From Candidatus Omnitrophota bacterium (GTDB taxonomy: Bacteria > Omnitrophota > Gorgyraeia > JABMRG01 > JAFGKX01): a stretch of DNA of 64,000 bases. The notes beneath the pieces were generated by a model. The model was not told the DNA's origin and ran no database searches. It saw nothing but the letters and a program-made list of their open reading frames with translations. Where the stretch lies: assembly GCA_043797125.1 (NCBI GenBank), contig JAZDPX010000045.1, forward strand, positions 8,338 to 72,337. Direction: 5' to 3'. This document shows, one piece after another, positions 17,687 to 43,120 of this stretch. The position numbers and the translations under genes were made by a program. The stretch's first letter is position 1, and every line of letters begins with the position of its first letter.

Positions 17687-17726
17687 CCCCTACGTAGCGG
17701 AGCCTTAAGGCTCCGCTACGTAGGGG
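17687..17726. repeat. Palindromic element copy A (extended 40-nt perfect palindrome CCCCTACGTAGCGGAGCCTTAAGGCTCCGCTACGTAGGGG) between sua5-ptp and glyA
   Basis: Read from the sequence. The core GTAGCGGAGCCTTAAGGCTCCGCTAC is shared with seven other copies. Confidence 0.9.
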
Positions 17727-17752
17727 TCTAGATGCTTACAATGGCTAAATTA

Positions 17753-18823
17753 TTACCCTCTTAGTTTCTTCGCTATAGATTTTACAGCTTCTTCAATCTG
17801 CCTAAAGCTTTCCTCGTACGCGAGAAACGCGTGGCCTATCGGGTCAGGGACATCAATGCTGTCTTTTGTAGTGCCCGCGAATTCCTTAAAAACATAGGTC
17901 TTATTTTTTGCGTTTGGTATTTTAGCGATAATAAGATTTTTCTGCAAAAGCTCCATAACAAAAATAATGTCTGCCCAATCCGCCAGCTCGCCTGTGAATC
18001 TGTGCGTTTTAAAATCAGACATATCAATATTTGCGTACCTTTTCATTGCTTCCTGCATCTCTTCTGAAGGCAGTAATCCGTCTATCGCTATTATGCCTGC
18101 TGATTTTATATCAAATCCGTATTTTGTCAACTCCCTTTTTAAAAGCGCCTCTGCCATTGGAGAGCGGCAACTGTTGCCTGCGCAAACCACAAGTATGTTT
18201 TTAATTTCCCCGCTTTTTTGGCTAAGAATAGCTTTTATCCTGTCTATATTGCTGCCCTCTCTTAGGATCTTTGGCTCCTGCGAGCTTATGTCTATTACTG
18301 TCGATGATATGCCCATTTCCGTGGGCCCTGAGTCTATAACCATATCTATGAGCCCGTCAAAGGCCTGGACCACGCTGAATGGCTCGACCGGATCCGGCCT
18401 GCCTGATATGTTGGCGCTCGGCACAGCTATATCAAGGCCGCCTTCTTTTATCAATTCGATTGCTATTTTATTCGCGGGTATTCTAAAGCCTATTTTTTCG
18501 CTGTCTTTTGATTTTAATATTATTGTCAAAGGCCCGGGCCAAAATTCATCCATAAGCTTTTTTGCGAGAGGCGTTACCTCGTGCGCATAATGCAAAACCC
18601 TTGTCTTATCAGCTATCTGTATTGTAAATGGTTTATCTTTAGGGCGCTTTTTTATATTATACAGCCTGTCAATGGCCTTTTTATTGTTGTAATCTGCCCC
18701 AAGGCCGTACACGGTCTCTGTAGGAAAGGCGACAATGCCGCCTTTTTTTAAGATATCCGCCGCTTGTTTTATTATGTTCGGGTCAGGGTTGTCTGGATCG
18801 ACTTTTACTATCTTTGTCTGCAT
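17753..18823 (-). CDS. Fusion protein: L-threonylcarbamoyladenylate synthase (Sua5/YrdC/YwlC domain) + low-molecular-weight protein tyrosine/arginine phosphatase (YwlE-like)
   Basis: N-terminal half has GIVAFPTETVYGLGAD and SANISG (YrdC fold). C-terminal half has the P-loop VVCAGNSCRSPMAEAL (CX5R) and a DP general-acid region. Confidence 0.8.
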   Translation of the reverse strand: MQTKIVKVDPDNPDPNIIKQAADILKKGGIVAFPTETVYGLGADYNNKKAIDRLYNIKKRPKDKPFTIQIADKTRVLHYAHEVTPLAKKLMDEFWPGPLTIILKSKDSEKIGFRIPANKIAIELIKEGGLDIAVPSANISGRPDPVEPFSVVQAFDGLIDMVIDSGPTEMGISSTVIDISSQEPKILREGSNIDRIKAILSQKSGEIKNILVVCAGNSCRSPMAEALLKRELTKYGFDIKSAGIIAIDGLLPSEEMQEAMKRYANIDMSDFKTHRFTGELADWADIIFVMELLQKNLIIAKIPNAKNKTYVFKEFAGTTKDSIDVPDPIGHAFLAYEESFRQIEEAVKSIAKKLRG

Positions 18824-18838
18824 AGGTTTCCCATGAAG

Positions 18839-18878
18839 CCGTAGCGGAGCCTTAAGGCTCCGCTACGGTTGTGGATAA
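18839..18878. repeat. Palindromic element copy B (core 18841-18866 + flank GGTTGTGGATAA) between purE and sua5-ptp
   Basis: Sequence is ccGTAGCGGAGCCTTAAGGCTCCGCTACggttgtggataa. Confidence 0.9.
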
Positions 18879-18881
18879 GTG

Positions 18882-19352
18882 CTATTTCCTCAAAACCGCT
18901 TTTGCTAGTTTCTTCTTATGCGCAGCTAATTTTTTCTGCAAACCCTTATCGTTTCCAGCCAAGATCTGCGCCGCGAAAATGCCTGAGTTTTTAGCGCCTG
19001 CTGTTCCTATCGCCATGCACGCGACAGGAACTCCTCCGGGCATCTGCACTGTGGAAAACAACGCGTCTATGCCTGCTAACGACTTATTTTCTATGGGTAT
19101 GCCGATTACCGGCAATGTTGTATGCGCGGCAACAACGCCTGCTAAATGAGCGGCATAGCCGGCTGCGCAAATTATAACCTTTATGCCTTTTTCTTTAGCT
19201 CCTTCTGCAAATTTTGCCGTTTCTTTAGGTGTTCTGTGCGCCGATAAAACCTTTACAACATATTCTATGCCAAATTCGTTTAATATATCCAAACCATGCT
19301 GCACAGTAGGCATGTCTGATTCGCTGCCCATGATTATTGCGACTTTTATCAT
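18882..19352 (-). CDS. purE: N5-carboxyaminoimidazole ribonucleotide mutase
   Basis: MIKVAIIMGSESDMPTV... Length 156 aa. Confidence 0.9.
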   Translation of the reverse strand: MIKVAIIMGSESDMPTVQHGLDILNEFGIEYVVKVLSAHRTPKETAKFAEGAKEKGIKVIICAAGYAAHLAGVVAAHTTLPVIGIPIENKSLAGIDALFSTVQMPGGVPVACMAIGTAGAKNSGIFAAQILAGNDKGLQKKLAAHKKKLAKAVLRK

Positions 19353-19362
19353 CGTATGCTCC

Positions 19363-20661
19363 TCATTTTAATTTCTCGCGGCCTAACGCTCTGTATCCGA
19401 TGTCCTTCCTATAATGCATGCCCTCAAAATTTATTTTGCTGCAAGCCTCATACGCTTTATCTATCGCCTGTTTTATGTCAATGCCAAGCGCGGTCACTCC
19501 GAGAACGCGGCCGCCGGTTGTTTTGTATTGAGTATTGAGTCGTGAGTCGTGAGCAACATTAGTGCCGGCGTGGAAAACTACTACGCTATCGAGCTTGTCT
19601 GCTTCATCCAGGCCATTTATATTCGTGCCTTTTTTATAATTTCCCGGATAGCCCCCTGCGGCGCAAACAACGCATACGCAAGGCCTTTTGTCCCATTCTA
19701 ATTTTACATTTTCCATATTGCCGTCTATTGACGCTTCGATTGCATCCATAAGATCGCTTTTAAGCCTGGGTAATATCGCCTGCGTCTCCGGGTCTCCAAA
19801 ACGGACATTAAACTCCAATACCTTTGGCCCGTCGGCGGTTATCATTAGGCCGGCGTAAAGAACGCCTTTAAAGGGCGTACCTGCTTTATACAGTCCGGAT
19901 ATAATTGGTTTTATGATTTCGTCTTGTATTTTTTCGTCTAATTTTTCACTTATAACAGGCGCGGGAGAATAAGCTCCCATGCCTCCGGTATTCGGGCCTT
20001 TGTCATTATCATATATGCGCTTATGGTCCTGGCTCGATGCCAAGGAAGCAAAGCGTTTACCATCGCTTATTACTATTATTGATGCCTCTTCTCCCTCTAA
20101 ACAATCTTCTATGATTATTCTGCTTCCTGCCTGGCCAAAAATTTTGTCTATCATGGTCTGTTTTACTGCGTCAAGGGCCTCGCTTTTATTTTTGCATATA
20201 ATTACGCCTTTTCCTGCTGCTAAGCCGTCTGCCTTGACCACCATGGGCGTTTTTCGTTGGTTTATATGTTCTTTAGCGTCGTCGGGGTTATCAAAAATCA
20301 TAAAATCTGCTGTCGGGACCCTGAATCTTGACATTATTTCCTTAGCAAATACCTTGCTGCTTTCAAGCCGTGCCGTTTTTTTATCCGGGCCGAATATTCT
20401 CAAGCCTTTCTCGTTAAATTTATCCACTATGCCTTCCGCTAAAGGCGCTTCAGGGCCTACAATAGTTACATCTATTTTATTTTGGTTGGCGAAATTAAGT
20501 ATCTTAGGTATATCATCGGCTTTTATATCAACGCATTGCGCTTCTTTCTGCATCCCGCCGTTTCCCGGGGCTGCAAAAATTTTATCTACTCGCCTGCTTT
20601 GCGCTATTTTCCAGCAGAGCGCGTGTTCCCTTGCGCCTGAGCCGATTACGAGAACCTTCAT
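19363..20661 (-). CDS. purD: Phosphoribosylamine--glycine ligase
   Basis: MKVLVIGSGAREHAL... with an ATP-grasp architecture. Length 432 aa. Confidence 0.9.
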   Translation of the reverse strand: MKVLVIGSGAREHALCWKIAQSRRVDKIFAAPGNGGMQKEAQCVDIKADDIPKILNFANQNKIDVTIVGPEAPLAEGIVDKFNEKGLRIFGPDKKTARLESSKVFAKEIMSRFRVPTADFMIFDNPDDAKEHINQRKTPMVVKADGLAAGKGVIICKNKSEALDAVKQTMIDKIFGQAGSRIIIEDCLEGEEASIIVISDGKRFASLASSQDHKRIYDNDKGPNTGGMGAYSPAPVISEKLDEKIQDEIIKPIISGLYKAGTPFKGVLYAGLMITADGPKVLEFNVRFGDPETQAILPRLKSDLMDAIEASIDGNMENVKLEWDKRPCVCVVCAAGGYPGNYKKGTNINGLDEADKLDSVVVFHAGTNVAHDSRLNTQYKTTGGRVLGVTALGIDIKQAIDKAYEACSKINFEGMHYRKDIGYRALGREKLK

Positions 20662-20670
20662 AGTTTATAG

Positions 20671-20734
20671 TCATCCACAACCGTAGTCATCCACAACCGT
20701 AGCGGAGCCTTAAGGCTCCGCTACGGTTGTACAA
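20671..20734. repeat. Palindromic element copy C with both flank arms (ATCCACAACC-core-GGTTGTacaa) and a 16-nt tandem duplication of the left arm (tcatccacaaccgtag x2), between purM and purD
   Basis: Sequence is tagtcatccacaaccgtagtcatccacaaccGTAGCGGAGCCTTAAGGCTCCGCTACggttgtacaa. Core at 20699-20724. Confidence 0.9.
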
Positions 20735-21739
20735 TTAAATAAGTTTTACTTCTCTTTTCCCTCTCACAACCTCACCAATTACCCAAGACTCCATCTTAAA
20801 TTTCACCAATAGCTGCTGCGCCTTCCTAATATCCTTTTTCGGCAACACAACCACCATGCCAATACCCATGTTAAATACTTTATACATCTCTTGCTCGCTA
20901 ACATTGCCTTTTTTCTGTATCAGCTTAAATATTTCCGGCACAGGCCATGAATTTTTGTTTATAACAATAGATAGTCCTTCGGGAATAACCCGGACTACCT
21001 TGCTTTGGAACGAGCCGCCTGTTATGTGGGCCAGGGCTTTTACGTTTACGCGCTTTTGCAGGTGTAATAATTCTGTTGTGTAGAGCCTTGTCGGCGTAAG
21101 CAATTGTTTTGCCAATTTCTTTTGTTCGTTTTTGCTGAATACTTTTCTTACTAAAGAAAATCCGTTTGAATGCAGCCCGCTTGATGCAATACCTAAAACA
21201 GCGTCGCCTTTTTTTAAAGAGCTTCCGTCAATAATATCATTTTTATCTACAATGCCAACGCAAAAACCCGCTAAGTCATATTCGTTGGCAGCATACATAT
21301 CAGGCATCTCTGCTGTTTCCCCGCCCACAAGAGCGTAGCCGGTTTTGCGGCACGCAAAAGATATGCCTTTTATCACATCCTGTAAAACCTTTGGATGAAT
21401 TTTGCCCGTTGATATGTAATCAAGAAAAAATAAAGGCTTTGCGCCGGTTGTTGCAACGTCATTTACGCACATAGCAACAAGGTCTATGCCCACAGTATCG
21501 TGCTTGTTGCACATTTGCGCAATCATAAGTTTTGTGCCTACGCCGTCAGTGCTTGAGACAAGAACAGGCTCTTTAAACCGGCGCTTGTCAATCCCGAATA
21601 AACCGCCGAAAGAGCCTATGTCTGATATGGCGCCTTGGGTCTTGGTCTTTTTTACTAAGCCCTTTATGGCGTCGACAAACTTATCGCCTTTTTCAATATC
21701 CACTCCGGAGAATTTGTATGTAAGTTTTTTAACCTTCAT
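20735..21739 (-). CDS. purM: Phosphoribosylformylglycinamidine cyclo-ligase (AIR synthase)
   Basis: AIRS N- and C-terminal domain signature (GGLFGIDK..., HITGGSF...). Length 334 aa. Confidence 0.9.
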   Translation of the reverse strand: MKVKKLTYKFSGVDIEKGDKFVDAIKGLVKKTKTQGAISDIGSFGGLFGIDKRRFKEPVLVSSTDGVGTKLMIAQMCNKHDTVGIDLVAMCVNDVATTGAKPLFFLDYISTGKIHPKVLQDVIKGISFACRKTGYALVGGETAEMPDMYAANEYDLAGFCVGIVDKNDIIDGSSLKKGDAVLGIASSGLHSNGFSLVRKVFSKNEQKKLAKQLLTPTRLYTTELLHLQKRVNVKALAHITGGSFQSKVVRVIPEGLSIVINKNSWPVPEIFKLIQKKGNVSEQEMYKVFNMGIGMVVVLPKKDIRKAQQLLVKFKMESWVIGEVVRGKREVKLI

Positions 21740-23031
21740 AACCTTATCCTTTTAAAAATTGCGTCTATGTTTCTTAAGTAGTACTTCAAATCAAAACACG
21801 CTGTTATCTTGTTCGACTTAAGAATTTTTAGCACCTCTTTATCATTCAGTAAATTATTTTTAAAATCATTCTCCGGGTTTTCCCAGGTCTTCATCGCGTT
21901 TCTCTGCACCAAGACATACGCCTTGTCTCTTAATAAGCCTTCGCTTACAAGCGTATTTAAAACCCTTTGAGAATATATGAGCCCGCCTGTTTTATCAAGG
22001 TTCTGCAGCATCCTTTTCGGATATACAATCAAATGCGTTATTACATCTGCCATCTTATCAAGCATATAATCTATCAATATAGTCGAATCCGGGATTATAA
22101 CCCTTTCAACGGAGGAATGAGAAATATCCCTTTCATGCCACAGGGCTATATTCTCCAATGCCGCGTGCGCGTTTGAGCGCAAAATCCTCGCTAAGCCGGT
22201 GATTCTCTCGCATGTTATTGGGTTTCGTTTATGCGGCATGGCTGAAGAGCCTTTTTGCGTCGGAGAAAAATATTCTTCCGCTTCATAGACCTCTGTTCTT
22301 TGAAGGCCTCTTAAATCCACCGCTAATTTTTCCAGCGTAGCGCCGATAATTGCTATTGTAGCCATGTACTCTGCGTGAGCGTCGCGCTGCACAACCTGGT
22401 TTGAAACGGTAGCGCTCTTTAAGCCTAATTTTTTACAGACATAGTCTTCGATTGCAGGCTCTATATTTGAAAACGTGCCAACTGCGCCTGAAACTTTTCC
22501 CACGCTTATTGTTTCTTTTGCGCGGATCATTCTTTCTATATTGCGTTTGTTTTCTTCGTAATACAGCGCCATTTTAAGCCCAAACGTCGTAGGCTCCGCG
22601 TGCACGCCGTGGGTGCGGCCTATCATAGGGGTATTCTTGTATCTTTTTGCTTTTTGCGACAATGCTTCGCCAAACTGGTCTAAGTCTTTTAAAATAATAT
22701 CTGCTGCGTCTCTCATCTGAAGCGCCAGCGCCGTATCGGTAACGTCGTTGGATGTAAGCCCCATATGAATAAATCGGCCGTCAGGGCCTACGGATTCCTG
22801 CACGCAGGATACAAACGCGGCAACATCGTGGCTTGTCTTTTCCTCTATCTTTTTTATTTTATCGATGTTGAATTTTGCCTTAGCTTTAATATTGCTGAAT
22901 GCGGATTTTGGGATCTTTCCTTTTTTAGAAAGCGCCTCGCATGCCGCTATTTCAACATCCAGCATCCTCTGAAACTTGTTTTTTTCCTGCCATACGGCTT
23001 CCATGCCGGGCAGGGTGTATCGTGGTATCAT
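21736..23031 (-). CDS. purB: Adenylosuccinate lyase
   Basis: Lyase_1 family with the C-terminal ADSL domain. Motif GSSAMPHKRNP. Confidence 0.9.
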   Translation of the reverse strand: MIPRYTLPGMEAVWQEKNKFQRMLDVEIAACEALSKKGKIPKSAFSNIKAKAKFNIDKIKKIEEKTSHDVAAFVSCVQESVGPDGRFIHMGLTSNDVTDTALALQMRDAADIILKDLDQFGEALSQKAKRYKNTPMIGRTHGVHAEPTTFGLKMALYYEENKRNIERMIRAKETISVGKVSGAVGTFSNIEPAIEDYVCKKLGLKSATVSNQVVQRDAHAEYMATIAIIGATLEKLAVDLRGLQRTEVYEAEEYFSPTQKGSSAMPHKRNPITCERITGLARILRSNAHAALENIALWHERDISHSSVERVIIPDSTILIDYMLDKMADVITHLIVYPKRMLQNLDKTGGLIYSQRVLNTLVSEGLLRDKAYVLVQRNAMKTWENPENDFKNNLLNDKEVLKILKSNKITACFDLKYYLRNIDAIFKRIRL

Positions 23032-23043
23032 AACAGCTCCTTT

Positions 23044-23484
23044 TTATATTTTCGGCAATGCCATCTTCACAAACGCCAGAACAAATAATGCGACTGTCTC
23101 GATAATACCGAGCACCATCATATATTGGGCAAAGCCTTTGCCGCTTTCAACAAGCGCGTCCGAAGCCTTTGCCGCGGCAGCACCCTGCATCCATGCTGAA
23201 ACTCCTATGGCCAAACCCGCAGCAGCACCTAGCGCCATTTGGAAAGGGTAGCTTTCGGGAGGAAGCTTTGCATCCAAAATCGAGTTTCTCACAATCATTC
23301 CGTATAGCGTCTGTGTTAAAGGCGCCCCGACAAAAATAAGCACCATAAATGGCGCCGCTTTATTCTGCATGAAGACTTTTTTCCACGCGCCAATCGCTGC
23401 CATGCCGGCAATGCCGGCCCCTAAGCCGGAACCTACGGCTGATAACGCCAAAGAAAACCCCATGTCGCCTAAACCTTGTATCAT
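23044..23484 (-). CDS. ntpK: V/A-type ATP synthase proteolipid subunit K (c-ring)
   Basis: Two hydrophobic hairpins, Gly/Ala-rich (GSGLGAGIAGMAAIGAW...). Last gene of the V-ATPase cluster. Confidence 0.85.
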   Translation of the reverse strand: MIQGLGDMGFSLALSAVGSGLGAGIAGMAAIGAWKKVFMQNKAAPFMVLIFVGAPLTQTLYGMIVRNSILDAKLPPESYPFQMALGAAAGLAIGVSAWMQGAAAAKASDALVESGKGFAQYMMVLGIIETVALFVLAFVKMALPKI

Positions 23485-23547
23485 TTATATACCTCCTGTG
23501 TTAAAAAATTATACTTCTTTAACGCAGATTAGCGCAGATTAGAAGAA

Positions 23548-23580
23548 ACAGATAATCGCAGATAAACATCTGCGATTATC
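23548..23580 (-). other. Perfect 14-bp-stem hairpin (AGATAATCGCAGAT-gttt-ATCTGCGATTATCT on coding strand) within a cluster of five copies of the motif TAATCGCAGAT / ATCTGCG between ntpI and ntpK
   Basis: Read directly from the sequence. Flanking direct repeats are gcagattagcgcagattag and taatctgcgataatctg. Confidence 0.6.
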
Positions 23581-23612
23581 TCGCATCTTTTAATCTGCGA
23601 TAATCTGTGTAA

Positions 23613-26023: not shown

Positions 26024-26028
26024 AGGAT

Positions 26029-27321: not shown

Positions 27322-27324
27322 AGA

Positions 27325-29561: not shown

Positions 29562-29565
29562 TTGT

Positions 29566-30165
29566 CTATTTGGAGTCCAACAGGCTCGCTAGTTTCGGGT
29601 TTAAGTGCGCCTTAAGCGCGTAAAGAACAGCTTCCTGCGTAAAATCATAATAATAATCTTTCCCCTTTTCGCCTATTCTAAAACCGCTGTCTATGCCGGC
29701 GGCTGCTTTAAAGCTTACGCCCTTTCGCATTTCAGCAGAAAGCTCGCTAAGCAAGGCCTTTTCAATACCGGATTTGTCTTTTTCATTTAACAGGACTTCT
29801 ATATCCGCGATGCCCTGTTTGCTAAAACCCTTCACAGCTTCCAATAACAGATTTTTTAAATCCGCGTCAAGGTGCTTAGCGATATGGTTTTTCAGCACCT
29901 TGTCAAAAAGCTCTGTTATCTGCGACTTCAAAGAAAGTACCGTGTCCCTGGCCGCGTGTTTTAGCGCCTCTTGCGAGGCCTTTTGAAAATCATTGGCCTG
30001 ATTTTGGGCCTGTTTTAAAATAGCGTCTTTTTGCTGGTTTGCCTCTTTGGCAATCTGGCTTGCCTGCGCCTTTGCCTGCTTAATTATTTCATCAGCCTGC
30101 TTTTGCGCTTCTTTTACGCCGTCCTGCTTTATTTTATCGATTAAATTTTGAAGCTGCGCCTGCAT
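29566..30165 (-). CDS. ntpE: V/A-type ATP synthase subunit E (peripheral stalk)
   Basis: Lys/Ala/Gln-rich N-terminal coiled coil (...AKQKAEEIIKQAKAQASQIAKEA...). Length 199 aa. First gene of the cluster. Confidence 0.75.
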   Translation of the reverse strand: MQAQLQNLIDKIKQDGVKEAQKQADEIIKQAKAQASQIAKEANQQKDAILKQAQNQANDFQKASQEALKHAARDTVLSLKSQITELFDKVLKNHIAKHLDADLKNLLLEAVKGFSKQGIADIEVLLNEKDKSGIEKALLSELSAEMRKGVSFKAAAGIDSGFRIGEKGKDYYYDFTQEAVLYALKAHLNPKLASLLDSK

Positions 30166-30197: not shown

Positions 30198-30234
30198 GTA
30201 GCGGAGCCTTAAGGCTCCGCTACTTTGTGGATAA
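30198..30234. repeat. Palindromic element copy D (core 30198-30223 + tttgtggataa) in the 5' leader of the V-ATPase operon
   Basis: Read from the sequence. Confidence 0.9.
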
Positions 30235-30334: not shown

Positions 30335-31534
30335 CTATTCTAACCTGGTTAGATTTCTAGAAAAAACTTCGTTAATGTGTTGCCATGGCAGCGCGAAGAC
30401 TCTTTCGCTTAACTTTATTTTGCGCGGGACATGGCAAATAAGAAATCCTGTTTTCGCCGACTTATACTCGGAAAGAAAGACTTCTAAATGGCGTATATCG
30501 CTTGACGCGGGGTTCCCCGTTAATTTAACTTCAATCGGGGTGTAAACACCGTCCTCGTCAACAACCCAATCAACTTCAGGGCCGTCGGGATCTCTCCAAA
30601 ACCTAATTTTGGTTCCCCGGCCTTTTATACGCGTGCCCCTTAAGAGCTCGAGGCCGATGAACTGCTCAAACAGCAGCCCCATCGTATCCCTGGCCAACTT
30701 TACCCCTTCATGCGCCGCAAGGCGCCTTACTCCAAGATCAAAAAATAAATACTTCTCGGACTTGGTAAGTTTTTTTCTCGTCTTGCTTTGAGTCAAAGGT
30801 TCAATTCGTTCTGCAATAAGGCAGTCCTCTAATATCTGGTAGTAAGCGGCTATCGTGGTGTGGGAAACTCCTATTTCCTGCGATAATTTTCTTAAGTTGA
30901 TGATGCCGCCTGATTCGGAAGCCCCTAATTCCAGAAATCTTGCAAAATTTCCGAGATTGCGCACGGCGGCTTCAGCGCGGATTTCTTCTTCCAAATAAGT
31001 TGTTACATACGATTCTAAGTCAGCCTCTCTGTCAGAGTAATTTCCAATGGTAAGGATGCCCGGCAATGAACCGTATAAAAGTCGTTCGTTTAAATCCTTT
31101 GCCGGCACCTCCCGCAGGCTAAATGGATCCATGCGAAACGCAACAATACGCCCTGGAAGGAGATTAACCTGTGTTCCCCTGCGAAGTTTTCGGGCGCTTG
31201 AACCCGTAAGGATAAAATTTGCCTTTTTGTGATCGATTAAATCCTGAACGACATCGAGAATAGACGGCACTTTCTGAACTTCGTCCAAAATAACAAGCAA
31301 TCTTTTGCCTGATTTTGGGGCTTTCAACGATTCGACCTCTCCTTTGAGTAAATGCGGCGATTTTTCATATCTTTGCCGCACGTCCGGCTGGACAAATGAA
31401 ATTAATAAATCATGATCGAATCTGTTAATCAGTGTTGTCTTGCCTGTTTGCCGAGCTCCGAGCAAAAGAACGCTTTTGCTCCTATTCAATGTGTGTCTGA
31501 TTCTGTCTTCTATAAGCCTGTTTATGTATTTCAT
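30335..31534 (-). CDS. AAA+ ATPase with DUF4143-type C-terminal domain, copy 2 (paralogue of 5950..7173)
   Basis: Walker A LLGARQTGKTTL and Walker B LVILDEVQ. Same architecture as copy 1. Confidence 0.75.
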   Translation of the reverse strand: MKYINRLIEDRIRHTLNRSKSVLLLGARQTGKTTLINRFDHDLLISFVQPDVRQRYEKSPHLLKGEVESLKAPKSGKRLLVILDEVQKVPSILDVVQDLIDHKKANFILTGSSARKLRRGTQVNLLPGRIVAFRMDPFSLREVPAKDLNERLLYGSLPGILTIGNYSDREADLESYVTTYLEEEIRAEAAVRNLGNFARFLELGASESGGIINLRKLSQEIGVSHTTIAAYYQILEDCLIAERIEPLTQSKTRKKLTKSEKYLFFDLGVRRLAAHEGVKLARDTMGLLFEQFIGLELLRGTRIKGRGTKIRFWRDPDGPEVDWVVDEDGVYTPIEVKLTGNPASSDIRHLEVFLSEYKSAKTGFLICHVPRKIKLSERVFALPWQHINEVFSRNLTRLE

Positions 31535-31541
31535 AGTTTAC

Positions 31542-34178: not shown

Positions 34179-34198
34179 CCTGCCTGCCGGCAGGCAGG
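34179..34198. repeat. 20-nt perfect GC-rich palindrome CCTGCCTGCCGGCAGGCAGG in the pyrE-downstream / secreted-protein-upstream intergenic region
   Basis: Read from the sequence. No U-tract follows on either strand. Confidence 0.7.
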
Positions 34199-34270
34199 GA
34201 TTTGTCAGATTAGACACACGACTCACGACTCAATACGCACTACGAACCGCGAGAAATTAGTTGCTGGGTT

Positions 34271-34837: not shown

Positions 34838-34849
34838 ACAAAAATATAA

Positions 34850-34887
34850 GTAGCGGAGCCTTAAGGCTCCGCTACGGTTGTGGATAA
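34850..34887. repeat. Palindromic element copy E (core 34850-34875 + GGTTGTGGATAA); pyrF reads into it and stops at the central TTAA
   Basis: On the coding strand, TTA TCC ACA ACC GTA GCG GAG CCT TAA translates to L S T T V A E P stop. Confidence 0.9.
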
Positions 34888-35562
34888 CTCCCTTGCAGCT
34901 TTTGCCGGGTCAATAGCTTCAGTTATCGGCCGTCCTATAACAATAAAATCCGCGCCCTTTTTTAAGGCCCACTGCGGGGTAGCGATTCTTTTCTGGTCAA
35001 ACGCCGCGCTTGTTGCGGGCCGAACCCCGGGGGTTACAATTACAAAATTCCTGCCGCACGCAGCTCTTACCGCGCTTATTTCCTGCGGCGAGCACACAAC
35101 GCCGTCTGCGCCTGATTGCTTCGCTAACTTCGCCAAATACATAACCTGCCTTATTGGCGGACGACTTATGCCCAATTTGTTTAAAGCGCTTTTATCCATG
35201 CTTGTCAATACTGTTACAGCCAAAAGAACAGGCCTTCTGTCTTTTGGTAATGATTTTATCGCGCCTGCAGCTGCCTTAATCATCTCGCTGCCGCCTGATG
35301 CGTGTATATTAAGCATAATAGGATGCAGTTTGCAGGCAGCTTTAATCGCTTTTGCGACGGTGTTTGGTATGTCGTGGAATTTTAAATCTAAAAATACATC
35401 TGCGCCGGCGGCCTTTACCATTTTCACCGCTTCAGGCCCCGCAGCTGTAAATAGCTCGCTTCCGATTTTGAAGATTTTTATGGTCGGATAGAGTTTATCG
35501 ACGAGCTCTTTTGCCTTCTCTAGGGAATCTACGTCAAGCGCTACAATAATTTTGTTATTCAT
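34861..35562 (-). CDS. pyrF: Orotidine 5'-phosphate decarboxylase
   Basis: MNNKIIVALDVDSLEKAKELVDKL...KIFKIG. The C-terminal 8 residues (LSTTVAEP) and the stop codon are supplied by the palindromic repeat element. Confidence 0.9.
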   Translation of the reverse strand: MNNKIIVALDVDSLEKAKELVDKLYPTIKIFKIGSELFTAAGPEAVKMVKAAGADVFLDLKFHDIPNTVAKAIKAACKLHPIMLNIHASGGSEMIKAAAGAIKSLPKDRRPVLLAVTVLTSMDKSALNKLGISRPPIRQVMYLAKLAKQSGADGVVCSPQEISAVRAACGRNFVIVTPGVRPATSAAFDQKRIATPQWALKKGADFIVIGRPITEAIDPAKAARELSTTVAEP

Positions 35563-35570
35563 AATCTTAA

Positions 35571-35608
35571 GTAGCGGAGCCTTAAGGCTCCGCTACGGTT
35601 GTGGATAA
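35571..35608. repeat. Palindromic element copy F (core 35571-35596 + GGTTGTGGATAA); pyrD reads into it and stops at the central TTAA; pyrF ATG 9 nt downstream
   Basis: PyrD and PyrF share an identical C-terminus STTVAEP encoded by the element. Confidence 0.9.
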
Positions 35609-36520
35609 TTTCCCTACTATATCCCTTACCCTGGTAAACCCTTTTCTCTGCAAATATCTCTCGATGCCCTCCGCTGCCGCTATTGCTGCCCGCGGATTCA
35701 CAAAATTCGCAGTGCCTATCTGAACAGCTTGCGCGCCGCACAATAAAAATTCAATGGCATCCTGGCCTGTCATTATACCGCCTATTCCTATTACCGGTAT
35801 TTCGACGGCTTTTGCCGTTTCCCAGACAATGCGCAGCGCTATCGGCTTTATCGCCGGGCCGCTTAATCCGCCTGTTATATTGCCCAGGCGCGGCTTTTGC
35901 GTTTCTATATCAACTGCCATGCCTCTGATTGTGTTTATAACTGAAATCGCGTCAGCTCCTGCTTTTTCAACAGCCTTTGCTATTTCGCAAATATCTGCTA
36001 CGTCGGGGGAAAGCTTGACTATAACTGTCTTTTTTGTGTTTTTCTTAACCACCTTTGTAACAGCGGCAGCTGCTTTCGCATCCTGCGCAAACAACTTGTG
36101 ACTTGTGACTTGGTGACGTGGTGACCCTACATTTGGGCACGATATATTCACTTCAACCCCCGCCACCCCCGCAATATCTAACAACCCCGCCAACCTGCCA
36201 TATTCCTCTATTTTCTCGCCTGCGATGCTTACAACAACAGGGATGCCTATGTTTTTCAAGTATGGCAGTTTAGTCCTTATAAAATCCTCAACGCCCTCGT
36301 TTTGCAAGCCTATGGCATTGAGCATTCCTGCTGTTGTCTCCCAAATCCGAGGCGGGATATTGCCCTGCCTCGGGTTTAATGTAACGGACTTGGTTATAAC
36401 AGCGCCTAATTTTTTTAAATCTATTAAATCCTTAAATTCCTCGGCATAACCAAATGTGCCTGAGGCAACCATTACGGGATTTTGTAATTTTATTTTTCCG
36501 ATTTTAACCGATGTGTCCAC
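35582..36520 (-). CDS. pyrD: Dihydroorotate dehydrogenase (class 1B) catalytic subunit
   Basis: MDTSVKIGKIKLQNPVMVASGTFGY... Same repeat-derived LSTTVAEP C-terminus. Confidence 0.9.
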   Translation of the reverse strand: MDTSVKIGKIKLQNPVMVASGTFGYAEEFKDLIDLKKLGAVITKSVTLNPRQGNIPPRIWETTAGMLNAIGLQNEGVEDFIRTKLPYLKNIGIPVVVSIAGEKIEEYGRLAGLLDIAGVAGVEVNISCPNVGSPRHQVTSHKLFAQDAKAAAAVTKVVKKNTKKTVIVKLSPDVADICEIAKAVEKAGADAISVINTIRGMAVDIETQKPRLGNITGGLSGPAIKPIALRIVWETAKAVEIPVIGIGGIMTGQDAIEFLLCGAQAVQIGTANFVNPRAAIAAAEGIERYLQRKGFTRVRDIVGKLSTTVAEP

Positions 36521-37362: not shown

Positions 37363-37457
37363 AAAAGTTTAAAATGCAAAATGCAAAATTTCAATTCAAA
37401 ATTAAAAAAATTGAATTTTTGAATTTTTAATTGCAATTTTACATTTTTAATTTTTAA

Positions 37458-38696
37458 TTAAAATAACTCCAGCTGCTTCTCCCTAATCTGCTCCAATTCC
37501 CCTTCCTTAAAAATCTTCACAGTGCCGTAGACGCCGTCGTATCCCGGCTCTATATTAAGTTCGCCGTTACGTGCCTTAATAATAGCTCTCGCAGTAGATT
37601 CCGGCAGTTTCTCTTCAATGTCTTTTTCATCAGCATCCAGCAATATGGCGAACTCGCTTCCGAAATGCGCCACCGCAGACATATATTCCTGCTCAACTGC
37701 CTTTGTGTTAACGCCTTTTTGCTGCGCCTCCGCTATTATCTCAACCAGCGGCACAAGGTTCTTATAGGGTATCGCGTTCTTCGGGATAAAACCTTCTTCT
37801 CTATCCGCAAGCTCATCAACCCTGTTCATTACCCCGACCGTAAGAGGCTTACCGCACTTGGGGCATCTTTGATTATGCTGCTTTGTTTCCTTGGGCGTTA
37901 ATCTTACATCACACATCCTGTGCCCATCAAGGTGATATTTACCTTCTTCGGGATAAAACTCGACTGTAAATAAAAATTTGGATTTATCTTTTTTCTTCAG
38001 CGCGTCCGTAATTGCATTATAGCTTAATTCGCAGCCAAAAACATTCACTTCCCTGCCTAATTTTATCGGCGAATGCGCGTCCGAATTTGATATAAGCGCG
38101 TATTTATCCAAAGAGCTCAAGCGCCAGTTCATCGCGGGGTCCGAGCTTAAACCTGTTTCCAGGGCAAAAATATTTTTTGCCTCCTCCTCAAAACATTCCT
38201 CAACCGAATCAAAACCCGAATTAGAACCAAACACGGAAAACCACGGAGTCCACGCGTGCGCCGGTATAACCATACATTTATCCGAAGCGTCAAGGCAGAT
38301 CTTCACTATATCCTTTACATCAAATCCGAATATCGGCCTGCCATCGGAGGTGATATTGCCTCTGTTTGACAGCTTTTTGTTTATCTTTTCCGCTGTTTCG
38401 AAATCCGGCGCAAATATGATTGTGTGTATTCTTCTGCCTTCGTTGTTTTTAGAATACATGTTGCTTACTTCAGCGGTAAGCATAAACTTTACGCCGTTAT
38501 ATTCGTAAAATCCTCCGGATGTTGGTTTTAATTTGCTCTTTAATTCCTCAAGCCACAAATGGTGGGTGAAATCGCCCGTGCCTATTAAGTCGATGCCTTT
38601 TAATTTGGCCCACCGGGCAATATGCTCGACATCCATATCTTTGCTCGTTGCCCGGCTGCATTTTGAGTGAATGTGCAGGTCTGCTATGGTTCTCAA
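37458..38696 (-). CDS. PHP-domain phosphoesterase with C-terminal zinc-finger, endonuclease Q (EndoQ)-like
   Basis: N-terminal PHP motif IADLHIHSKCSRATS. C-terminal HRMC...CPKCGKPL zinc-ribbon-like segment. Size (about 410 aa) and architecture match EndoQ/TIGR00375-type proteins. The functional call is tentative. Confidence 0.5.
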   Translation of the reverse strand: MRTIADLHIHSKCSRATSKDMDVEHIARWAKLKGIDLIGTGDFTHHLWLEELKSKLKPTSGGFYEYNGVKFMLTAEVSNMYSKNNEGRRIHTIIFAPDFETAEKINKKLSNRGNITSDGRPIFGFDVKDIVKICLDASDKCMVIPAHAWTPWFSVFGSNSGFDSVEECFEEEAKNIFALETGLSSDPAMNWRLSSLDKYALISNSDAHSPIKLGREVNVFGCELSYNAITDALKKKDKSKFLFTVEFYPEEGKYHLDGHRMCDVRLTPKETKQHNQRCPKCGKPLTVGVMNRVDELADREEGFIPKNAIPYKNLVPLVEIIAEAQQKGVNTKAVEQEYMSAVAHFGSEFAILLDADEKDIEEKLPESTARAIIKARNGELNIEPGYDGVYGTVKIFKEGELEQIREKQLELF

Positions 38697-39184
38697 ATAT
38701 TAATGCCTTCTAAGGCTTTTCTAATCGCTGCCTCAACAAAGCTTGCGTTATCCACCTTGCCTTGCTGTATATTAAAGTTGGATATTTTAAACGCTTTTCT
38801 TTGCTTAAAGGCGTCTACCATCGTATTTACACACTTTTTCACACCTGTGCCAGAGCCGTAAGTTGTAAAACATATTGCGTCTTTGCCGTCAAGGCCTCCT
38901 AATTTATCCAAAAAAGTATTTACCGCCGGGGCCGGGGCAAATGCCCAGACAGGGGTGCCTACACAGATTACATCATAATCTGTTATATTAACCCCTTCAT
39001 CCGGCAAGGACGCTCTTTTTCTTCTAAATGCGCGCACGCATTGGGCAAAGAAGTTTACGGATTCGTCTGTCGGCTCAAGCCGCCACGTAGCGACTTCGCA
39101 CTTTACGCTTAATATATCTTCCAAAGCTTTAGCTATCTTTTGGGTATTACCTGTGTATGAGTAATATGCTATTAGGGCTTTCAT
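38693..39184 (-). CDS. Flavodoxin
   Basis: MKALIAYYSYTGNTQKIAKALE... (FMN-binding T/SxTGxT loop). Length 163 aa. Confidence 0.8.
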   Translation of the reverse strand: MKALIAYYSYTGNTQKIAKALEDILSVKCEVATWRLEPTDESVNFFAQCVRAFRRKRASLPDEGVNITDYDVICVGTPVWAFAPAPAVNTFLDKLGGLDGKDAICFTTYGSGTGVKKCVNTMVDAFKQRKAFKISNFNIQQGKVDNASFVEAAIRKALEGINI

Positions 39185-39199
39185 ATTAATCCGTTCTAT

Positions 39200-39225
39200 G
39201 TAGCGGAGCCTTAAGGCTCCGCTAC
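39200..39225. repeat. Palindromic element copy G (core only) between pyrC and flavodoxin gene
   Basis: GTAGCGGAGCCTTAAGGCTCCGCTAC followed by tgttttcattg, a divergent flank. Confidence 0.9.
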
Positions 39226-39230
39226 TGTTT

Positions 39231-40511
39231 TCATTGCTTATAGAGTATTTTTCCGTTACAGATTGTCATTACAACGCAGCCTTTAAATTCTCTGCCGATA
39301 AAGGGCGAGTTTTTTGATTTGGAAAGTATGCTATCTTTGGTAAATTTCCATTCTTTTTCAGGATCTATTATAACAATGTCGGCATCGGCGCCTGGCGATA
39401 ACCTTCCTTTGTTTTTGAGCCCCAAAATCTCTGCGGGCGCAAAAGACATCTTTTTAATCACGTCTTCCCATTTGAGAAATTTTTTATCTATTAACTCTGC
39501 CGCAGCCAGACCAAGCGCTGTCTCAAGCCCTATCATTCCGAAGGCAGCGATATCAAACTCAACATCCTTATCTGCCTCTGTATGCGGGGCATGGTCTGTT
39601 GCAATAACATCTATTGTCCCGTCTTTTAAACCTTGTATTATGGCGCTTCGGTCTTGTTCTGCGCGCAGCGGCGGGTTTACCTTTGTGTTTGTGTTAAAAT
39701 CTTTTACTTCTTCGTCGGTAAGCGTAAAATAATGAGGGCATGTTTCAGCTGTTACATTTATGCCTTTTTCTTTGGCCTGCCTTATAATCTGGACCGATTC
39801 CCTGGTGGATACGTGCGCAATGTGAATTTTCGCCTTTGCAAAATCCGCCAGCGCAATATCCCTTGCCACGATGCTGTATTCCGAAATATTCGGTATCCCG
39901 CGCAAGCCAAGCAGGGTCGATGTGAAGCTTTCGTTCATAACGCCTGCCTGCGACAATCTAAGGTCCTCGCAATGCGATATAACAAGCATACCAAACATCT
40001 TTGAATACTCAAGCGCCTTTCTCATAAGCTGCGCGTCTTTTACGGAAAAACCGTCGTCTGAAATCGCCACAGCGCCCGCTTCTTTCATGTCAGCTATCTC
40101 TGCTAAATCCTCGCCAAGGCGAGCCTTTGTTATTGCCCCGATAGGGAATATATTCACGCTCGCGTTTCGTTTTGACTCGGATATAATATATTCAATCGCC
40201 CCCCTGTTATCGCATGCGGGCTCGGTGTTGGGCATCGCGGCTACGCTTGTAAAGCCTCCTTTTGCCGCGGCCCTTGACGCGCTTAAAAAATCTTCCGCAT
40301 CTTCCCTGCCCGGCTGCCTTAAGTGCGTGTGCATATCAAAAAACCCCGGGCCGGCAATCTTGCCGTCGGCATCTATAAGCTGTGCCTCCTTGTCTTTTAT
40401 ATCCTTGTCTACCTTTAGTATCTTGCCGTCTTCTATTAGTATATCCGAGAGCCTGTTTATTTTATTGGCAGGGTCTATAACCTTAGCGTTTTTTATTAAT
40501 AGCTTCGTCAT
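39231..40511 (-). CDS. pyrC: Dihydroorotase
   Basis: [12 protein letters not shown] metal-binding motif. Amidohydrolase fold. Length 426 aa. Confidence 0.9.
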
Positions 40512-41431
40512 GGTTTTGTACCTAAAAGCAAAAACAACACAGCCATGCGCACGGCAATGCCGTTTGTCACCTGATTTAATATAACGGAATATTCTCCGTC
40601 AGCAACCTCGGGAGATAATTCAAGCCCGCGGTTTATGGGCCCGGGATGCATAATCAGAACATCCCTTTTCGCGTATTTTAATTTTTCAGCGTCAATGCCG
40701 AATTTCATCATATACTCTCTTGTTGACGGGAAAAATTTATCTTTCTGCCTTTCCAGTTGTATGCGCAATATGTTTATGGCGTCCGCGCTTGCTATGGCGT
40801 CCTTAATATTTGTGGTAACATTAACGCCCATCTTTTCTATTTCCGCCGGCATAAGCGTGGACGGGCCGCAGACAGTAACCTTTGCGCCTAATTTGGTCAG
40901 GCCCCATATATTGGAGCGCGCTACTCTTGAATGCATGATGTCGCCTATAATAGAGACGTTCAAACCCGCTATGCGTCCTTTCTTTTCCTTAATGGTAAAA
41001 ATATCCAGAAGCCCCTGCGTAGGATGTTCGTGCGAACCATCGCCTGCGTTTATTACGCTGGGCACAAGCACTTTTGATAAAACGCTGGCAACGCCTGACG
41101 ATGAATGCCTTATGACAATAGCGTCTATCTTCATTGCCTCTATGTTTTTAACTGTATCTTTTATTGTTTCGCCTTTTTTAAGGCTGCTTGTGTTCGCTGC
41201 CACAGATAGCGTATCTGCGGAAAGCCTTTTTGCCGCAAGCTCAAATGACGTGCGCGTGCGCGTGCTCGGCTCGAAAAACAGCATGACCACGGTTTTGCCT
41301 CTTAGGGTGGGCACCTTTTTAATGGGGCGTTCGGATATTTCCTTGAAGGAGGTAGCGGTGTTTAATATGAGATTGATTTCATCTACGCTTAAGTCTTCTA
41401 ATCCTAATAAGTCTTTTCTCTGCCATTTCAT
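40508..41431 (-). CDS. pyrB: Aspartate carbamoyltransferase catalytic subunit
   Basis: [15 protein letters not shown] and HPGP motifs. Confidence 0.9.
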
Positions 41432-41973
41432 TGCTTCTCACCTAACACAACTTCGTCTTTACCGTCGCATTCTTCTAATCTTACTTCCACCGCTTCTTTT
41501 TCAGATGTTGGGATATTTTTCCCGACATAATCAGGCCTTACGGGAAGCTCCCTGTGGCCCCTGTCTATAAGCACCGCCAGCTGTATGGACTTCGGCCTTC
41601 CAAAATCTATAATTTCATCAAGGGCGCAGCGTATGGTCCTTCCCGTATAAAGCACGTCATCTACAAGAACAATGTGCTTGGCGGTTACATCAAAATCTAT
41701 CTTGGTCTGGCGCACAATAGGTTGCTGCGCGACCGTGGTTAAATCATCTCTATATAATGTAATGTCCAGCACGCCAAAAGCTATTTTCTCTTTTTGTTTT
41801 TCCTCGATAACCGTTGCTATCCTTTTACCCAGATGCTCTCCCCTGTTTCTTATGCCTATAATAGCGACGTCTGTTGTCTTTTTATTATGCTCTATTATCT
41901 CGCAGGCTATGCGCACAAGCGCCTTGGATATGGCTTCTTTATCCATAATCTTTGATTTTTCTTTGATGGTCAT
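41428..41973 (-). CDS. pyrR: Bifunctional pyrimidine operon regulator / uracil phosphoribosyltransferase PyrR
   Basis: PRTase motif [12 protein letters not shown]. Length 181 aa. First gene of the pyr cluster. Confidence 0.9.
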
Positions 41974-42105
41974 TGTAGAGATCCCTCGTCGCGGAGTTTA
42001 CCCCGAACCTTTATGGTTCGGGGCTCCTCGGGATTTAATTCGCAGACGGCCCCGAGGTATCGGGGCCTATGTTTTACATAGCTTACGCTATGTAAAACAT
42101 CTGCT
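41974..42105 (-). promoter_or_regulatory. Structured pyr-operon leader with candidate PyrR-binding element
   Basis: Minus strand contains three consecutive hairpins: ATGTTTTACATAGC-gtaa-GCTATGTAAAACAT, GGCCCCGA-tacc-TCGGGGCC, and CCCCGAACC-ataaa-GGTTCGGGG. The segment aaaUCCCGAGGAGCC between them resembles the PyrR-box core UCCnGnGAGG. SD gaggga precedes pyrR. Confidence 0.4.
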
Positions 42106-42107
42106 CA

Positions 42108-42150
42108 TTAAAAAAATACCCACCTTTGAATCGTGGTGGGTCTGTTTGTT
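42108..42150 (-). terminator. Rho-independent terminator downstream of lpxA (hairpin CCCACC(ACG)-attcaaa-GGTGGG followed by a U-run on the minus strand); also terminator-like on the plus strand
   Basis: Plus strand reads aaaaaaataCCCACCtttgaatcgtGGTGGGtctgtttgttt. The reverse complement gives the stem plus tattttttt. Confidence 0.6.
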
Positions 42151-42249
42151 TACGCTACTGCTCATTTTTCCCTTTCCCAGCCTCTCTGGACCGAGTTAAA
42201 AGGTTTAAGTTTAATTGTCTTCATAATATATCATATGCCGTCGATTTTG

Positions 42250-43056
42250 TCAAGCGGAACCTACCCTTTGGTTCCGGCCAAGGGTGTTTTTTGGGGCGAT
42301 ACCGCGTTTTGACGCTTTTATAAACTCGACTACAGAAATTATTTCTTTCGAATCAAACCGAGCCTCCAACTCTTTTAATGCGTTGGTGGTGTTAAGCCCA
42401 GATGTATATATTATTTTATATGCCTGCCTTATCTGATTTTTTATGTCTTGCGAAAACCCAGCCCGTTTTATGCCTACGACATTATATGAATCCACAACAT
42501 CGGTTGTCTGCGTCAGCATAAAGGGGGGTATGTCCTGTTTTACTCTTATGCCGCCGCCTATCATTGCAAGGGAGCCTATCCTTACAAACTGGTGTATTAC
42601 ACAGCCGCCTGATATAAATGCCCTGTCCCCTACTTCAACATGCCCTGCTAAAAGCGTGTTGTTGCAGACAACTACATTATTGCGGATATTGCAATCATGC
42701 GCTATGTGCGAAAGCGCCATAAAATAATTATCATTACCTATAATTGTGGCTGCGCCCGGCTTTGCTGCGCGGTGGGCTGTCGCATATTCCCTGAATGTAT
42801 TCCTGTCGCCGACTTTTAAGAAACCTTCGGTGCCTTTTTTATACGAGAGGTCCTGCGGCTCACCGCCCAAACTGACGTTATTGTATATGCGGCAGTCCTC
42901 ACCTATCGTAGTGCCCGTATATATGAAACTTGAAGCGCCTATTTTTGTGCCCTTGCCTATATTCACCCCGTCTTCAACAACCACGTACGGGCCTATTTCA
43001 ACGGTTTGGGCTATTTTCGCTTTTTTTGATACTATTGCGGTTTTGTGAATGCTCAT
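42250..43056 (-). CDS. lpxA: Acyl-ACP--UDP-N-acetylglucosamine O-acyltransferase
   Basis: Hexapeptide-repeat left-handed beta-helix of LpxA length (268 aa). N-terminus is MSIHKTAIVS...AKIAQTVEIGPYVVVEDGVNIGKGTKIG. Confidence 0.8.
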   Translation of the reverse strand: MSIHKTAIVSKKAKIAQTVEIGPYVVVEDGVNIGKGTKIGASSFIYTGTTIGEDCRIYNNVSLGGEPQDLSYKKGTEGFLKVGDRNTFREYATAHRAAKPGAATIIGNDNYFMALSHIAHDCNIRNNVVVCNNTLLAGHVEVGDRAFISGGCVIHQFVRIGSLAMIGGGIRVKQDIPPFMLTQTTDVVDSYNVVGIKRAGFSQDIKNQIRQAYKIIYTSGLNTTNALKELEARFDSKEIISVVEFIKASKRGIAPKNTLGRNQRVGSA

Positions 43057-43082
43057 GGTTCGTATTGCCTATCTGCTGGTAG

Positions 43083-43120
43083 GTAGCGGAGCCTTAAGGC
43101 TCCGCTACTTGTGTGGATAA
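43083..43120. repeat. Palindromic element copy H (core 43083-43108 + ttgtgtggataa) between rsmI and lpxA
   Basis: Read from the sequence. Confidence 0.9.

Follow-up and report, generated by a model that had tools for sequence, protein, structure and literature searches.

The window analysed here comprises 64,000 nucleotides of a Candidatus Omnitrophota bacterium (assembly GCA_043797125.1, contig JAZDPX010000045.1, positions 8,338 to 72,337 of the forward strand), and the subject of our analysis is a 26-nt perfect palindrome, GTAGCGGAGCCTTAAGGCTCCGCTAC, which is repeated between its genes and is a new family of repetitive extragenic palindromic (REP) repeats. Eight exact copies are present, starting at 17694, 18841, 20699, 30198, 34850, 35571, 39200 and 43083, compared to an expectation of 0.00 and to none in 100 shuffled sequences. 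The original prediction, which was made from the letters alone, had named eight such palindromes in 26 kb, and the exact-match count bears this out. No extra copies were found in the window with one to three mismatches, and searches with up to six substitutions or with half-sites recovered no decayed copies there beyond chance. All eight copies are situated at junctions of co-directional minus-strand genes, as had also been predicted: judged by the coordinates of the open reading frames (ORFs), 15 gaps of 19 nt or more separate the minus-strand genes between 15.3 and 47.3 kb, and a copy fills 8 of them. With 8 copies in 26 kb, the repeat is within the window a short, dispersed and mostly extragenic palindrome of the kind known from REP systems.

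The copies consist of the 26-nt core and, in most cases, a one-sided tail. The predicted positions of seven cores stood, but the core of copy 1 occupies 17694-17719 and not 17691-17722, a span that falls within a longer perfect palindrome at 17687-17726. Copy 1 lies in the sua5/glyA gap at the centre of this palindrome (CCCCTAC, core, GTAGGGG) and lacks the TGTGGATAA block of the tail. Copy 2 (18841-18878) occupies the purE/sua5 gap with its core at 18841-18866 and the tail GGTTGTGGATAA at 18867-18878, the purE stop codon lying 3 nt past the tail. In the purM/purD gap, copy 3 (20671-20730, core 20699-20724) has its tail on the opposite side, in the form of two tandem 16-nt units TCATCCACAACC at 20671 and 20687, and a partial mirror, GGTTGT, at 20725-20730. 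Copy 4 (30198-30234, core and tail TTTGTGGATAA) stands between an AAA_14/DUF4143 gene and the first V-ATPase gene, 32 nt upstream of the latter (start codon at 30165). Copy 5 (34850-34887) at pyrF/pyrE and copy 6 (35571-35608) at pyrD/pyrF both carry the tail GGTTGTGGATAA and encode the final eight codons and the TAA stop of pyrF and pyrD, respectively; the start codons of pyrE and pyrF follow 12 and 8 nt after the hairpin. Copy 7 (39200-39225), a core only, is found in the 46-nt gap between pyrC and a flavodoxin gene; 5 nt separate it from the preceding pyrC stop and 15 nt from the start codon that follows. Copy 8 (43083-43120, core and tail TTGTGTGGATAA) lies in the rsmI/lpxA gap, where the rsmI stop codon TAG abuts the tail. 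Target-site duplications showed no consistent pattern at the copies, with TTA after the core in three of the five tailed copies, and loss of Shine-Dalgarno sequences downstream of the copies was uninformative, with about half of all genes here lacking one.

Two features of the gene arrangement touch on the distribution of the copies. A minus-strand ORF of 5,529 codons spans 47339-63928, and because this one giant ORF fills the final 16.6 kb of the window, that part holds no repeat copies. The gene beside copy 4 (30335-31534) encodes an AAA_14/DUF4143 ATPase that breaks the string of housekeeping genes; it has a paralogue at 5950-7173, and its orthologue adjoins pyrE in a related contig, L018.

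All copies share one architecture: a GTAG tag, a variable stem of 7 bp, a TTAA loop, the complementary stem and CTAC. As RNA, the core forms an 11-bp hairpin with the TTAA loop (-21.3 kcal/mol, z = -7). GTAG had been proposed as the first tetranucleotide of the element, and it indeed stands at the 5' foot of all eight copies and of most relatives; GTAA and GCAG replace it in two lineages, each with a complementary 3' end. The 3' CTAC pairs with GTAG, so the whole 26-mer is perfectly palindromic and both strands read alike. Scans of public genomes and metagenomes revealed the identical 26-mer in two contigs (L001 and L002) of JAFGFC01, a metagenome-assembled genome (MAG) labelled Spirochaetes with 38% G+C, and in four contigs of one metagenome (L003-L006). 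In L001, six copies within 5.3 kb differ from the core by paired substitutions. The variants in L001 and L002 were found by their similarity to the core and not by palindromy; 4 of the 11 stem pairs are changed on both sides, there are no internal mispairs, and the covariation score of 0.277 compares to 0.077 in shuffles, none of 500 shuffles being as high. Because several stem variants coexist in one genome with pairing kept, the conserved feature is, on the evidence of this covariation, the hairpin, and not a dyad that a single protein would recognise by its sequence.

No Rfam family was found at the gathering threshold in the whole window, and in the literature that we could search we found no paper with the GTAGCGGAGCCTTAAGGCTCCGCTAC sequence (the matches were unrelated primers) and none that links Omnitrophota with REPs. 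As for mobile vehicles, the 50-nt full palindrome was unmatched in plasmids or phages and the degenerate core pattern had no match in viral contigs. A sequence with the stem of the window but another loop, GTAGCGGAGCC-GGGC-GGCTCCGCTAC, occurs once in an organism of 54% G+C seen in two metagenomes (L007 4521-4546, L008 1924-1949); it may be a chance match or a distant relative, and we treated it as unrelated or chance.

Some copies lie inside longer perfect palindromes, namely 17687-17726 and 20693-20730 in the window, 1428-1471 in L002 and 2344-2381 in L001. Their outer arms (CCCCTAC/GTAGGGG, ACAACC/GGTTGT, ATTTCCATA/TATGGAAAT, TAAACA/TGTTTA) are mutually unrelated, and such cases are more frequent than chance allows. 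These longer palindromes may have arisen by insertion into the centres of existing palindromes or by growth through template switching.

The relatives also indicate a partner enzyme. Contig L001 encodes P0001, a 164-aa Y1 transposase of the REP-associated tyrosine transposase (RAYT) type, and copies of the repeat lie at both ends of its ORF, at a distance of 8 nt on the stop side and 11 nt on the start side. Seven homologues with 46-58% identity (P0014, P0004, P0019, P0002, P0009, P0007 and P0015) are encoded on seven different contigs. All seven come with perfect palindromes of 26-28 nt centred on TTAA, which are no more than about 60 nt away from the ORF, overlap its stop codon or lie inside it; this is the arrangement known for RAYTs as a REPtron (PMC3733652). 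These palindromes again consist of a 4-nt tag, 7 variable bp, TTAA and the complement, and their stems are lineage-specific, such as ACGGCAC, ACGGCCC, ACGGCAA, ACCGATG and ACCGAGC. With P0001 included, one RAYT clade is thus directly flanked by palindromes of this build in eight independent contigs. The clade scores 120-130 bits on the NCBIfam RAYT equivalog NF047646 (cut-off 80) versus 32-47 on IS200, its best relative in the PDB is the E. coli TnpAREP (4ER8), and the HUH motif and Y-x3-N-P are invariant (H59, H61, Y120, N124, P125). By these profile scores and motifs it is a RAYT clade, that is, a clade of Y1 HUH enzymes. A profile search placed its members in Elusimicrobiota/Endomicrobiia, WOR-3, Chlamydiota and some Firmicutes, and also in Omnitrophota MAGs including Candidatus Gorgyraea atricola. 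The REP-like nature suggested for the element at the outset is therefore corroborated by its GTAG tag, its stable hairpin, the compensatory variation of its stem and its association with RAYTs.

Four RAYT genes of the P0001 clade carry one of their own 26/28-nt palindromes inside the ORF (L009 4609-4634, L015 1872-1897, L013 6818-6845, L021 3512-3537). The insertions share a site just before the WQEGYY motif, and the frame in which they are translated has no stop (GRRQLIAAY, CSWSLSSDY, VDRHLSAGLR, GNRCLSIGY). Each internal copy follows the external repeat of its lineage, and in L021 it equals the downstream copy, which suggests concerted evolution or autoregulation. Giant ORFs also adjoin the RAYT genes in L009 and L015. 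Furthermore, the identical 26-nt core is shared by differently labelled phyla, L001/L002 being assigned to Spirochaetes (38% G+C) and the window to Omnitrophota (44% G+C). Horizontal transfer of a RAYT-REP pair, a MAG that is wrongly labelled and mis-binning are the explanations to which this points; for RAYTs, inheritance is reported to be mostly vertical (PMC5581495).

The window itself was also said to contain a RAYT gene. A Y1_Tnp gene is present at 9788-10357 (plus strand, 189 aa), in keeping with that statement, but the implied link to the 26-mers is probably wrong. The gene lies in a region with repeats of its own (9639-10395, the repeats at 9639-9700 and 10354-10395): copies of GTAGGGGTGAACCGTCCCC flank it at 10354 and 10377 on the plus strand and, inverted, at 9639-9657, its TAG stop lies in the first downstream GTAGGGGTGAACCGTCCCC, and related GGGGACAG pieces are found upstream of it. 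GTAGGGGTGAACCGTCCCC is not dispersed elsewhere in the window. One could suppose that this transposase mobilises the 26-mers nevertheless: both repeat types begin with GTAG, the guide and recognition tetranucleotide (PMC8266576), the copy 1 arm GTAGGGG equals the first 7 nt of GTAGGGGTGAACCGTCCCC, and the HUH motif and the catalytic tyrosine are intact. However, the flanks of the gene hold three copies of the other repeat and no 26-mer, the nearest of which is 7.3 kb away, the protein shares only 24% identity with P0001, the RAYT that accompanies the 26-mer, its score of 69 bits is under the NCBIfam RAYT cut-off of 80, and the flanking GGGGACAG fits the consensus GGGG[AT][CG]A[CG] described for the terminal inverted repeats (TIRs) of TIR-associated tyrosine transposases (TIRYTs) (PMC3733652, PMC6006769). 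In view of its own flanking repeat, low identity and sub-cut-off score, we judged this gene an unlikely partner of the 26-mers. Its homologues at about 45% identity include forms of 315-330 aa with a C-terminal Bac_DnaA_C helix-turn-helix (HTH) domain (P0313, P0316, P0319, P0341; 49 bits for P0313 at a cut-off of 31.5), and the window protein has no such domain. As judged by sequence, the window gene belongs to a TIRYT-like group (TnpAREP subclass 2.1) and not to the P0001 clade.

The tail of the repeat deserves separate consideration. The flank GGTTGTGGATAA is exact at three copies (18867, 34876, 35597), two copies have variants of it (30224 TTTGTGGATAA, 43109 TTGTGTGGATAA), and it is absent at copies 1 and 7. 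A one-sided flank shared by most copies had been proposed, with a consistent orientation relative to the genes. The consistency was not supported: the orientation in the window is 5:1 with copy 3 reversed, copies 1 and 7 have no flank, and in the related contigs L003, L006 and L016 the tail stands on the other side. The linker between core and tail varies by length and sequence (2-3 nt; GGT, TT, TTG). The conserved 9-nt block, TGTGGATAA, reads TTATCCACA on the gene-sense strand and fits TT[AT]TNCACA, which is quoted as the DnaA-box consensus (PMC6006769), a general consensus that may not be Omnitrophota's own. TTATCCACA is exact at five copies; the window has six exact 9-mers, of which five are located at the elements, versus about 0.5 by chance. 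Related tails occur in L006 (TTATCCACA), L003 (TTATTCACA) and L016 (TTGTCCACA), with weaker ones in L001, L002 and L014. The tail is absent from most copies in L001, L002, L004 and L005, and the ACGGC-stem subfamilies have a different flank (AAAGTGTA-like) that tracks the RAYT lineage.

The constancy of the tail block next to a varying linker, its concentration at the elements and the related tails in L006, L003 and L016 would fit an element that is mainly a double-stranded protein-binding site, whether the tail is a true DnaA box that the family disperses or the dyad serves as an operator or uptake sequence. We hold this to be improbable: stem variants coexist in one genome with pairing preserved, the tail is missing from copies 1 and 7 and from most copies of four related contigs, the flank of the ACGGC-stem subfamilies follows the RAYT lineage, and the consensus may differ in Omnitrophota. 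The reading that we prefer is that the tail would be the stretch between the RAYT cleavage site and the hairpin, since a CT or CA dinucleotide close to the hairpin is where RAYTs are known to cut (PMC8266576); its identity with a DnaA box may be coincidental.

A more daring idea takes the tail for a genuine DnaA-type box in a bipartite site of hairpin and DnaA box, read by DnaA or by an HTH-bearing Y1 transposase of the TIRYT group. We give it a small chance of being right. If it were true and DnaA read the tail, then high-affinity DnaA boxes would be spread by a mobile repeat, or DnaA would help the repeat by opening the DNA so that the hairpin can extrude. If an HTH-bearing Y1 enzyme read it, an orphan HTH domain would gain a target and a REP family would be tied to replication-initiator recognition; Quentin et al. 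(2018) found no DnaA-box-like target for the TIRYT HTH domain (PMC6006769). The occurrence of Bac_DnaA_C on homologues of the window Y1 protein is curious beside the DnaA-box-like tail of the dispersed repeat.

The repeats have altered the ends of two genes, pyrF (orotidine monophosphate decarboxylase; 34861-35562, minus strand) and pyrD (dihydroorotate dehydrogenase; 35582-36520, minus strand). Both genes read the flank and the 5' arm as TTA TCC ACA ACC GTA GCG GAG CCT TAA, and the ORF coordinates and translations confirm what had been noticed before, namely that both proteins end in the identical LSTTVAEP and that the stop lies in the central TTAA. The window pyrF product is identical to NCBI protein MFH0732814.1. 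Its orthologues end in ...AAEEIIKQI[CM], those of pyrD end in ...IIGK followed by IKIT or LKVNNG, and none of the orthologues checked ends in LSTTVAEP, which agrees with the suspicion that the tail is repeat-derived and not ancestral. Because the orthologues end in other residues, the comparison indicates that LSTTVAEP replaces the native 4-7 terminal residues. Three frames lead into the core. Two of them meet a stop codon, one in the TAG of GTAG and the other in the TAA of the loop; the remaining frame is open and encodes x-S/R-x-x-L-x-x-x-Y. The loop stop is used by pyrD and pyrF of the window, the tag stop by the RAYT genes in L014 and L015, and the open frame by pyrF of L016, which reads through the variant GTAGCAAAGCCTTAAGGCTTTGCTAC and ends in ...SKALRLCYSVDK, thereby gaining SKALRLCY. 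Di Nocera et al. describe a stop supplied by the tag as common among GTAG REPs (PMC3733652). Two essential enzymes whose C-termini are replaced by the same eight repeat-encoded residues illustrate how repeats can rewrite gene ends in a very compact genome. For annotation this means that identical short C-terminal tails and stops inside palindromes signal repeat insertion and not homology.

The pyr genes form an operon in the order pyrR-pyrB-pyrC-[copy 7]-flavodoxin-...-pyrD-[copy 6]-pyrF-[copy 5]-pyrE. Upstream of pyrR, a PyrR-binding leader was identified at 42109-42207 on the minus strand (RF00515, 46.2 bits, which is under the gathering score of 54, E = 2.4e-5). Such a leader is conserved in L005, L016 and L018, with a common UCCAGAGAGG loop. 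Copies 5, 6 and 7 are internal to the PyrR-led operon, and there is no promoter room, because the next start codon is only 8-15 nt past the hairpin. Because these copies sit inside one operon without room for promoters, the gene arrangement implies that read-through transcription across them is required. The strong G+C-rich stem and the T-rich TTATATTTTT that follows copy 5 in gene sense would speak for intrinsic (Rho-independent) terminators. Yet seven of the eight copies have no T-run in gene sense and three lie within the PyrR-led operon, so that the usual picture of such a terminator, a hairpin with a U-tract at the end of a transcription unit, is not what is found here; we regard this explanation as extremely improbable. 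The original prediction that these are not classical intrinsic terminators thus stands, although its statement that no U-tract follows the hairpin needs an exception for copy 5.

A comparison among relatives shows both turnover and persistence of the repeat. L006 is syntenic with the 17-28 kb part of the window, its proteins being 67-76% identical and its 4-fold sites 33-50% identical. It lacks copies 1 and 2, and its purE and sua5 abut directly; at the purM/purD junction, it has a core identical in 26 of 26 positions and a tail identical in 10 of 11, in the same orientation as copy 3. L016 has one covarying variant at pyrF/pyrE, in the opposite orientation, and none at pyrD/pyrF. The pyr region of L018 is free of the 26-mer family and carries an unrelated GTAG repeat, GTAGGAGCGGCCTCCTGGCCGCGAATGAA, at both pyrD/pyrF and pyrF/pyrE (~9968-10000 and 10688-10720; duplicated in L019), whose TAG is the stop of both genes. 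The recurrent occupancy of the same junctions could result from insertion preference together with a scarcity of tolerated sites, or from a benefit of the hairpin for the host.

It is a tentative possibility, compatible with a REP origin, that the hairpins are kept mainly for host use, as RNA or DNA hairpins between cistrons that would tune the expression of operons, for example as barriers to 3'-exonucleases or by maintaining translational coupling, and that the RAYT link accounts for their origin only. All eight copies are perfect and none has decayed, the core and tail at purM/purD are preserved in a relative with near-saturated synonymous sites, and each of three lineages fills the pyrD/pyrF/pyrE junctions with a repeat, or an orientation, that differs from those of the other two. 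Moreover, the stop codons of pyrD and pyrF lie in the loop and the next ATG is 19-23 nt further on, and therefore a terminating ribosome would melt the hairpin. Against host use as the main cause, the close relative L018 makes do at those junctions with a repeat of another kind, L016 lacks one at pyrD/pyrF and L006 at two junctions, and the occupancy would follow equally from insertion bias and few tolerant sites. The perfect copies and the conserved orthologous copy argue for selection or ongoing homogenisation over a simple burst and decay. The re-occupied pyr junctions offer a clean natural system in which to ask whether REP persistence is due to insertion bias or to host benefit.

Taken together, we consider it likely that the eight copies are a REP-type family of short non-autonomous hairpin repeats whose RAYT partner is encoded elsewhere in the genome and acts in trans. 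The partner enzyme in this organism has to be inferred, because the window has no RAYT of the P0001 clade. The copies would be made or maintained in trans by this enzyme, which would act on the hairpin in single-stranded DNA, use GTAG for recognition and as a guide, and cut at a nearby CT or CA; such guide and cleavage behaviour was shown in vitro for other RAYTs (PMC8266576). Since the tag is present at both ends, both DNA strands would present the same substrate. In a compact genome only insertions at gene junctions would survive, and insertions at gene ends would be tolerated because two of the three frames stop inside the element (GTAG TAG, loop TAA) and the third is open. The copies would then be transcribed within operons, where their hairpins in the RNA would at most influence mRNA decay or translational coupling and would not end transcription. 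The repeat, its potential to form a hairpin, its compensatory changes and the link of its architecture to one RAYT clade are seen directly; that a RAYT mobilises the copies in this organism, that it acts on single strands, that transcription reads through the copies and that their RNA has a role are inferred.

Several observations weigh against this reading. No P0001-clade RAYT was found in the window, and tblastn detected no P0001-like pseudogene there; P0001 itself shares no more than 58% identity with its closest relative in the database; and the tag of classical GTAG REPs is unpaired and present at one end only (PMC3733652), unlike that of the 26-mer. Simple selfish spread and decay also sits poorly with eight identical, undecayed copies and with a purM/purD core kept at 26 of 26 positions in L006 while the 4-fold sites there have fallen to 33-50% identity. 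If the assignment to the REP/RAYT world is nevertheless correct, it extends this partnership to Omnitrophota and neighbouring uncultivated lineages, and it does so with an unusually symmetrical design, in which the tag on both strands and the fixed TTAA loop would make every copy a substrate on either strand.

At the other end of the window, ~1030-3220 is occupied by a tandem array of ~11 units of 195-204 nt (67-aa periodicity) with 60-100% identity, which presumably encodes the repeated domains of a large surface protein.

Among known systems, the family is best placed with the GTAG REPs and REPtrons (Di Nocera et al., 2013, PMC3733652; E. coli REP/TnpAREP, 4ER8). They have in common a palindrome of 20-40 nt with 5' GTAG, compensatory stem variants, sites between co-directional ORFs, termini that supply stop codons and, in the relatives of the present family, a RAYT flanked by its own repeats. 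The 26-mer differs from them in its GTAG, which is matched by CTAC with both strands identical instead of being unpaired at one end, in its 11-bp stem and invariant TTAA loop, in occurring as single units and not as dimers or clusters, and in lacking a cognate REPtron within the window. The Group 3 RAYT systems, S. maltophilia REPSm and Marinomonas REPMb (Corneloup et al., 2021, PMC8266576), share the perfect stem and a short A/T loop with a sequence effect (TTTA in REPMb), and there GTAG guides CT/CA cleavage near the hairpin; this likeness concerns features of the repeats. The iREP, which is the reverse-complement strand, shows no activity in the E. coli and S. maltophilia systems (PMC8266576), whereas the two strands of the 26-mer are identical.

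With the REPINs (Bertels and Rainey, 2011, PMC3116915) the family shares inverted symmetry, association with RAYTs and persistence in a lineage, to which we liken the one junction copy that is shared with a relative at ~70% nucleotide identity. A REPIN, however, consists of two inverted REP hairpins and a spacer, ~100 nt in all (PMC3116915), whereas the 26-mer is one hairpin, and no second hairpin unit lies within 100 nt of any copy. The Rickettsia palindromic elements and intragenic REPs (PMC3733652) are similar in that they insert into coding sequence in a tolerated frame and add residues, as LSTTVAEP, SKALRLCY and the inserts in the RAYT genes do here; the Rickettsia elements are 100-150 nt long and have no known transposase (PMC3733652), and most copies of the present family are found at the 3' ends of genes. 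The bacterial interspersed mosaic elements of E. coli carry sites for host factors, such as a REP together with a site for integration host factor. A REP hairpin is likewise combined here with a short motif that resembles a host site, although the motif is a different one, a DnaA-box look-alike, and its binding is putative. The TIRYT group or TnpAREP subclass 2.1 (PMC3733652, PMC6006769), finally, accommodates the Y1 gene of the window through the flanking inverted repeats with GGGGACAG and the ~45%-identity homologues with a Bac_DnaA_C HTH; the window protein of 189 aa differs from the HTH-bearing members of that group by the lack of this domain, and its repeats are distinct from the 26-mer.

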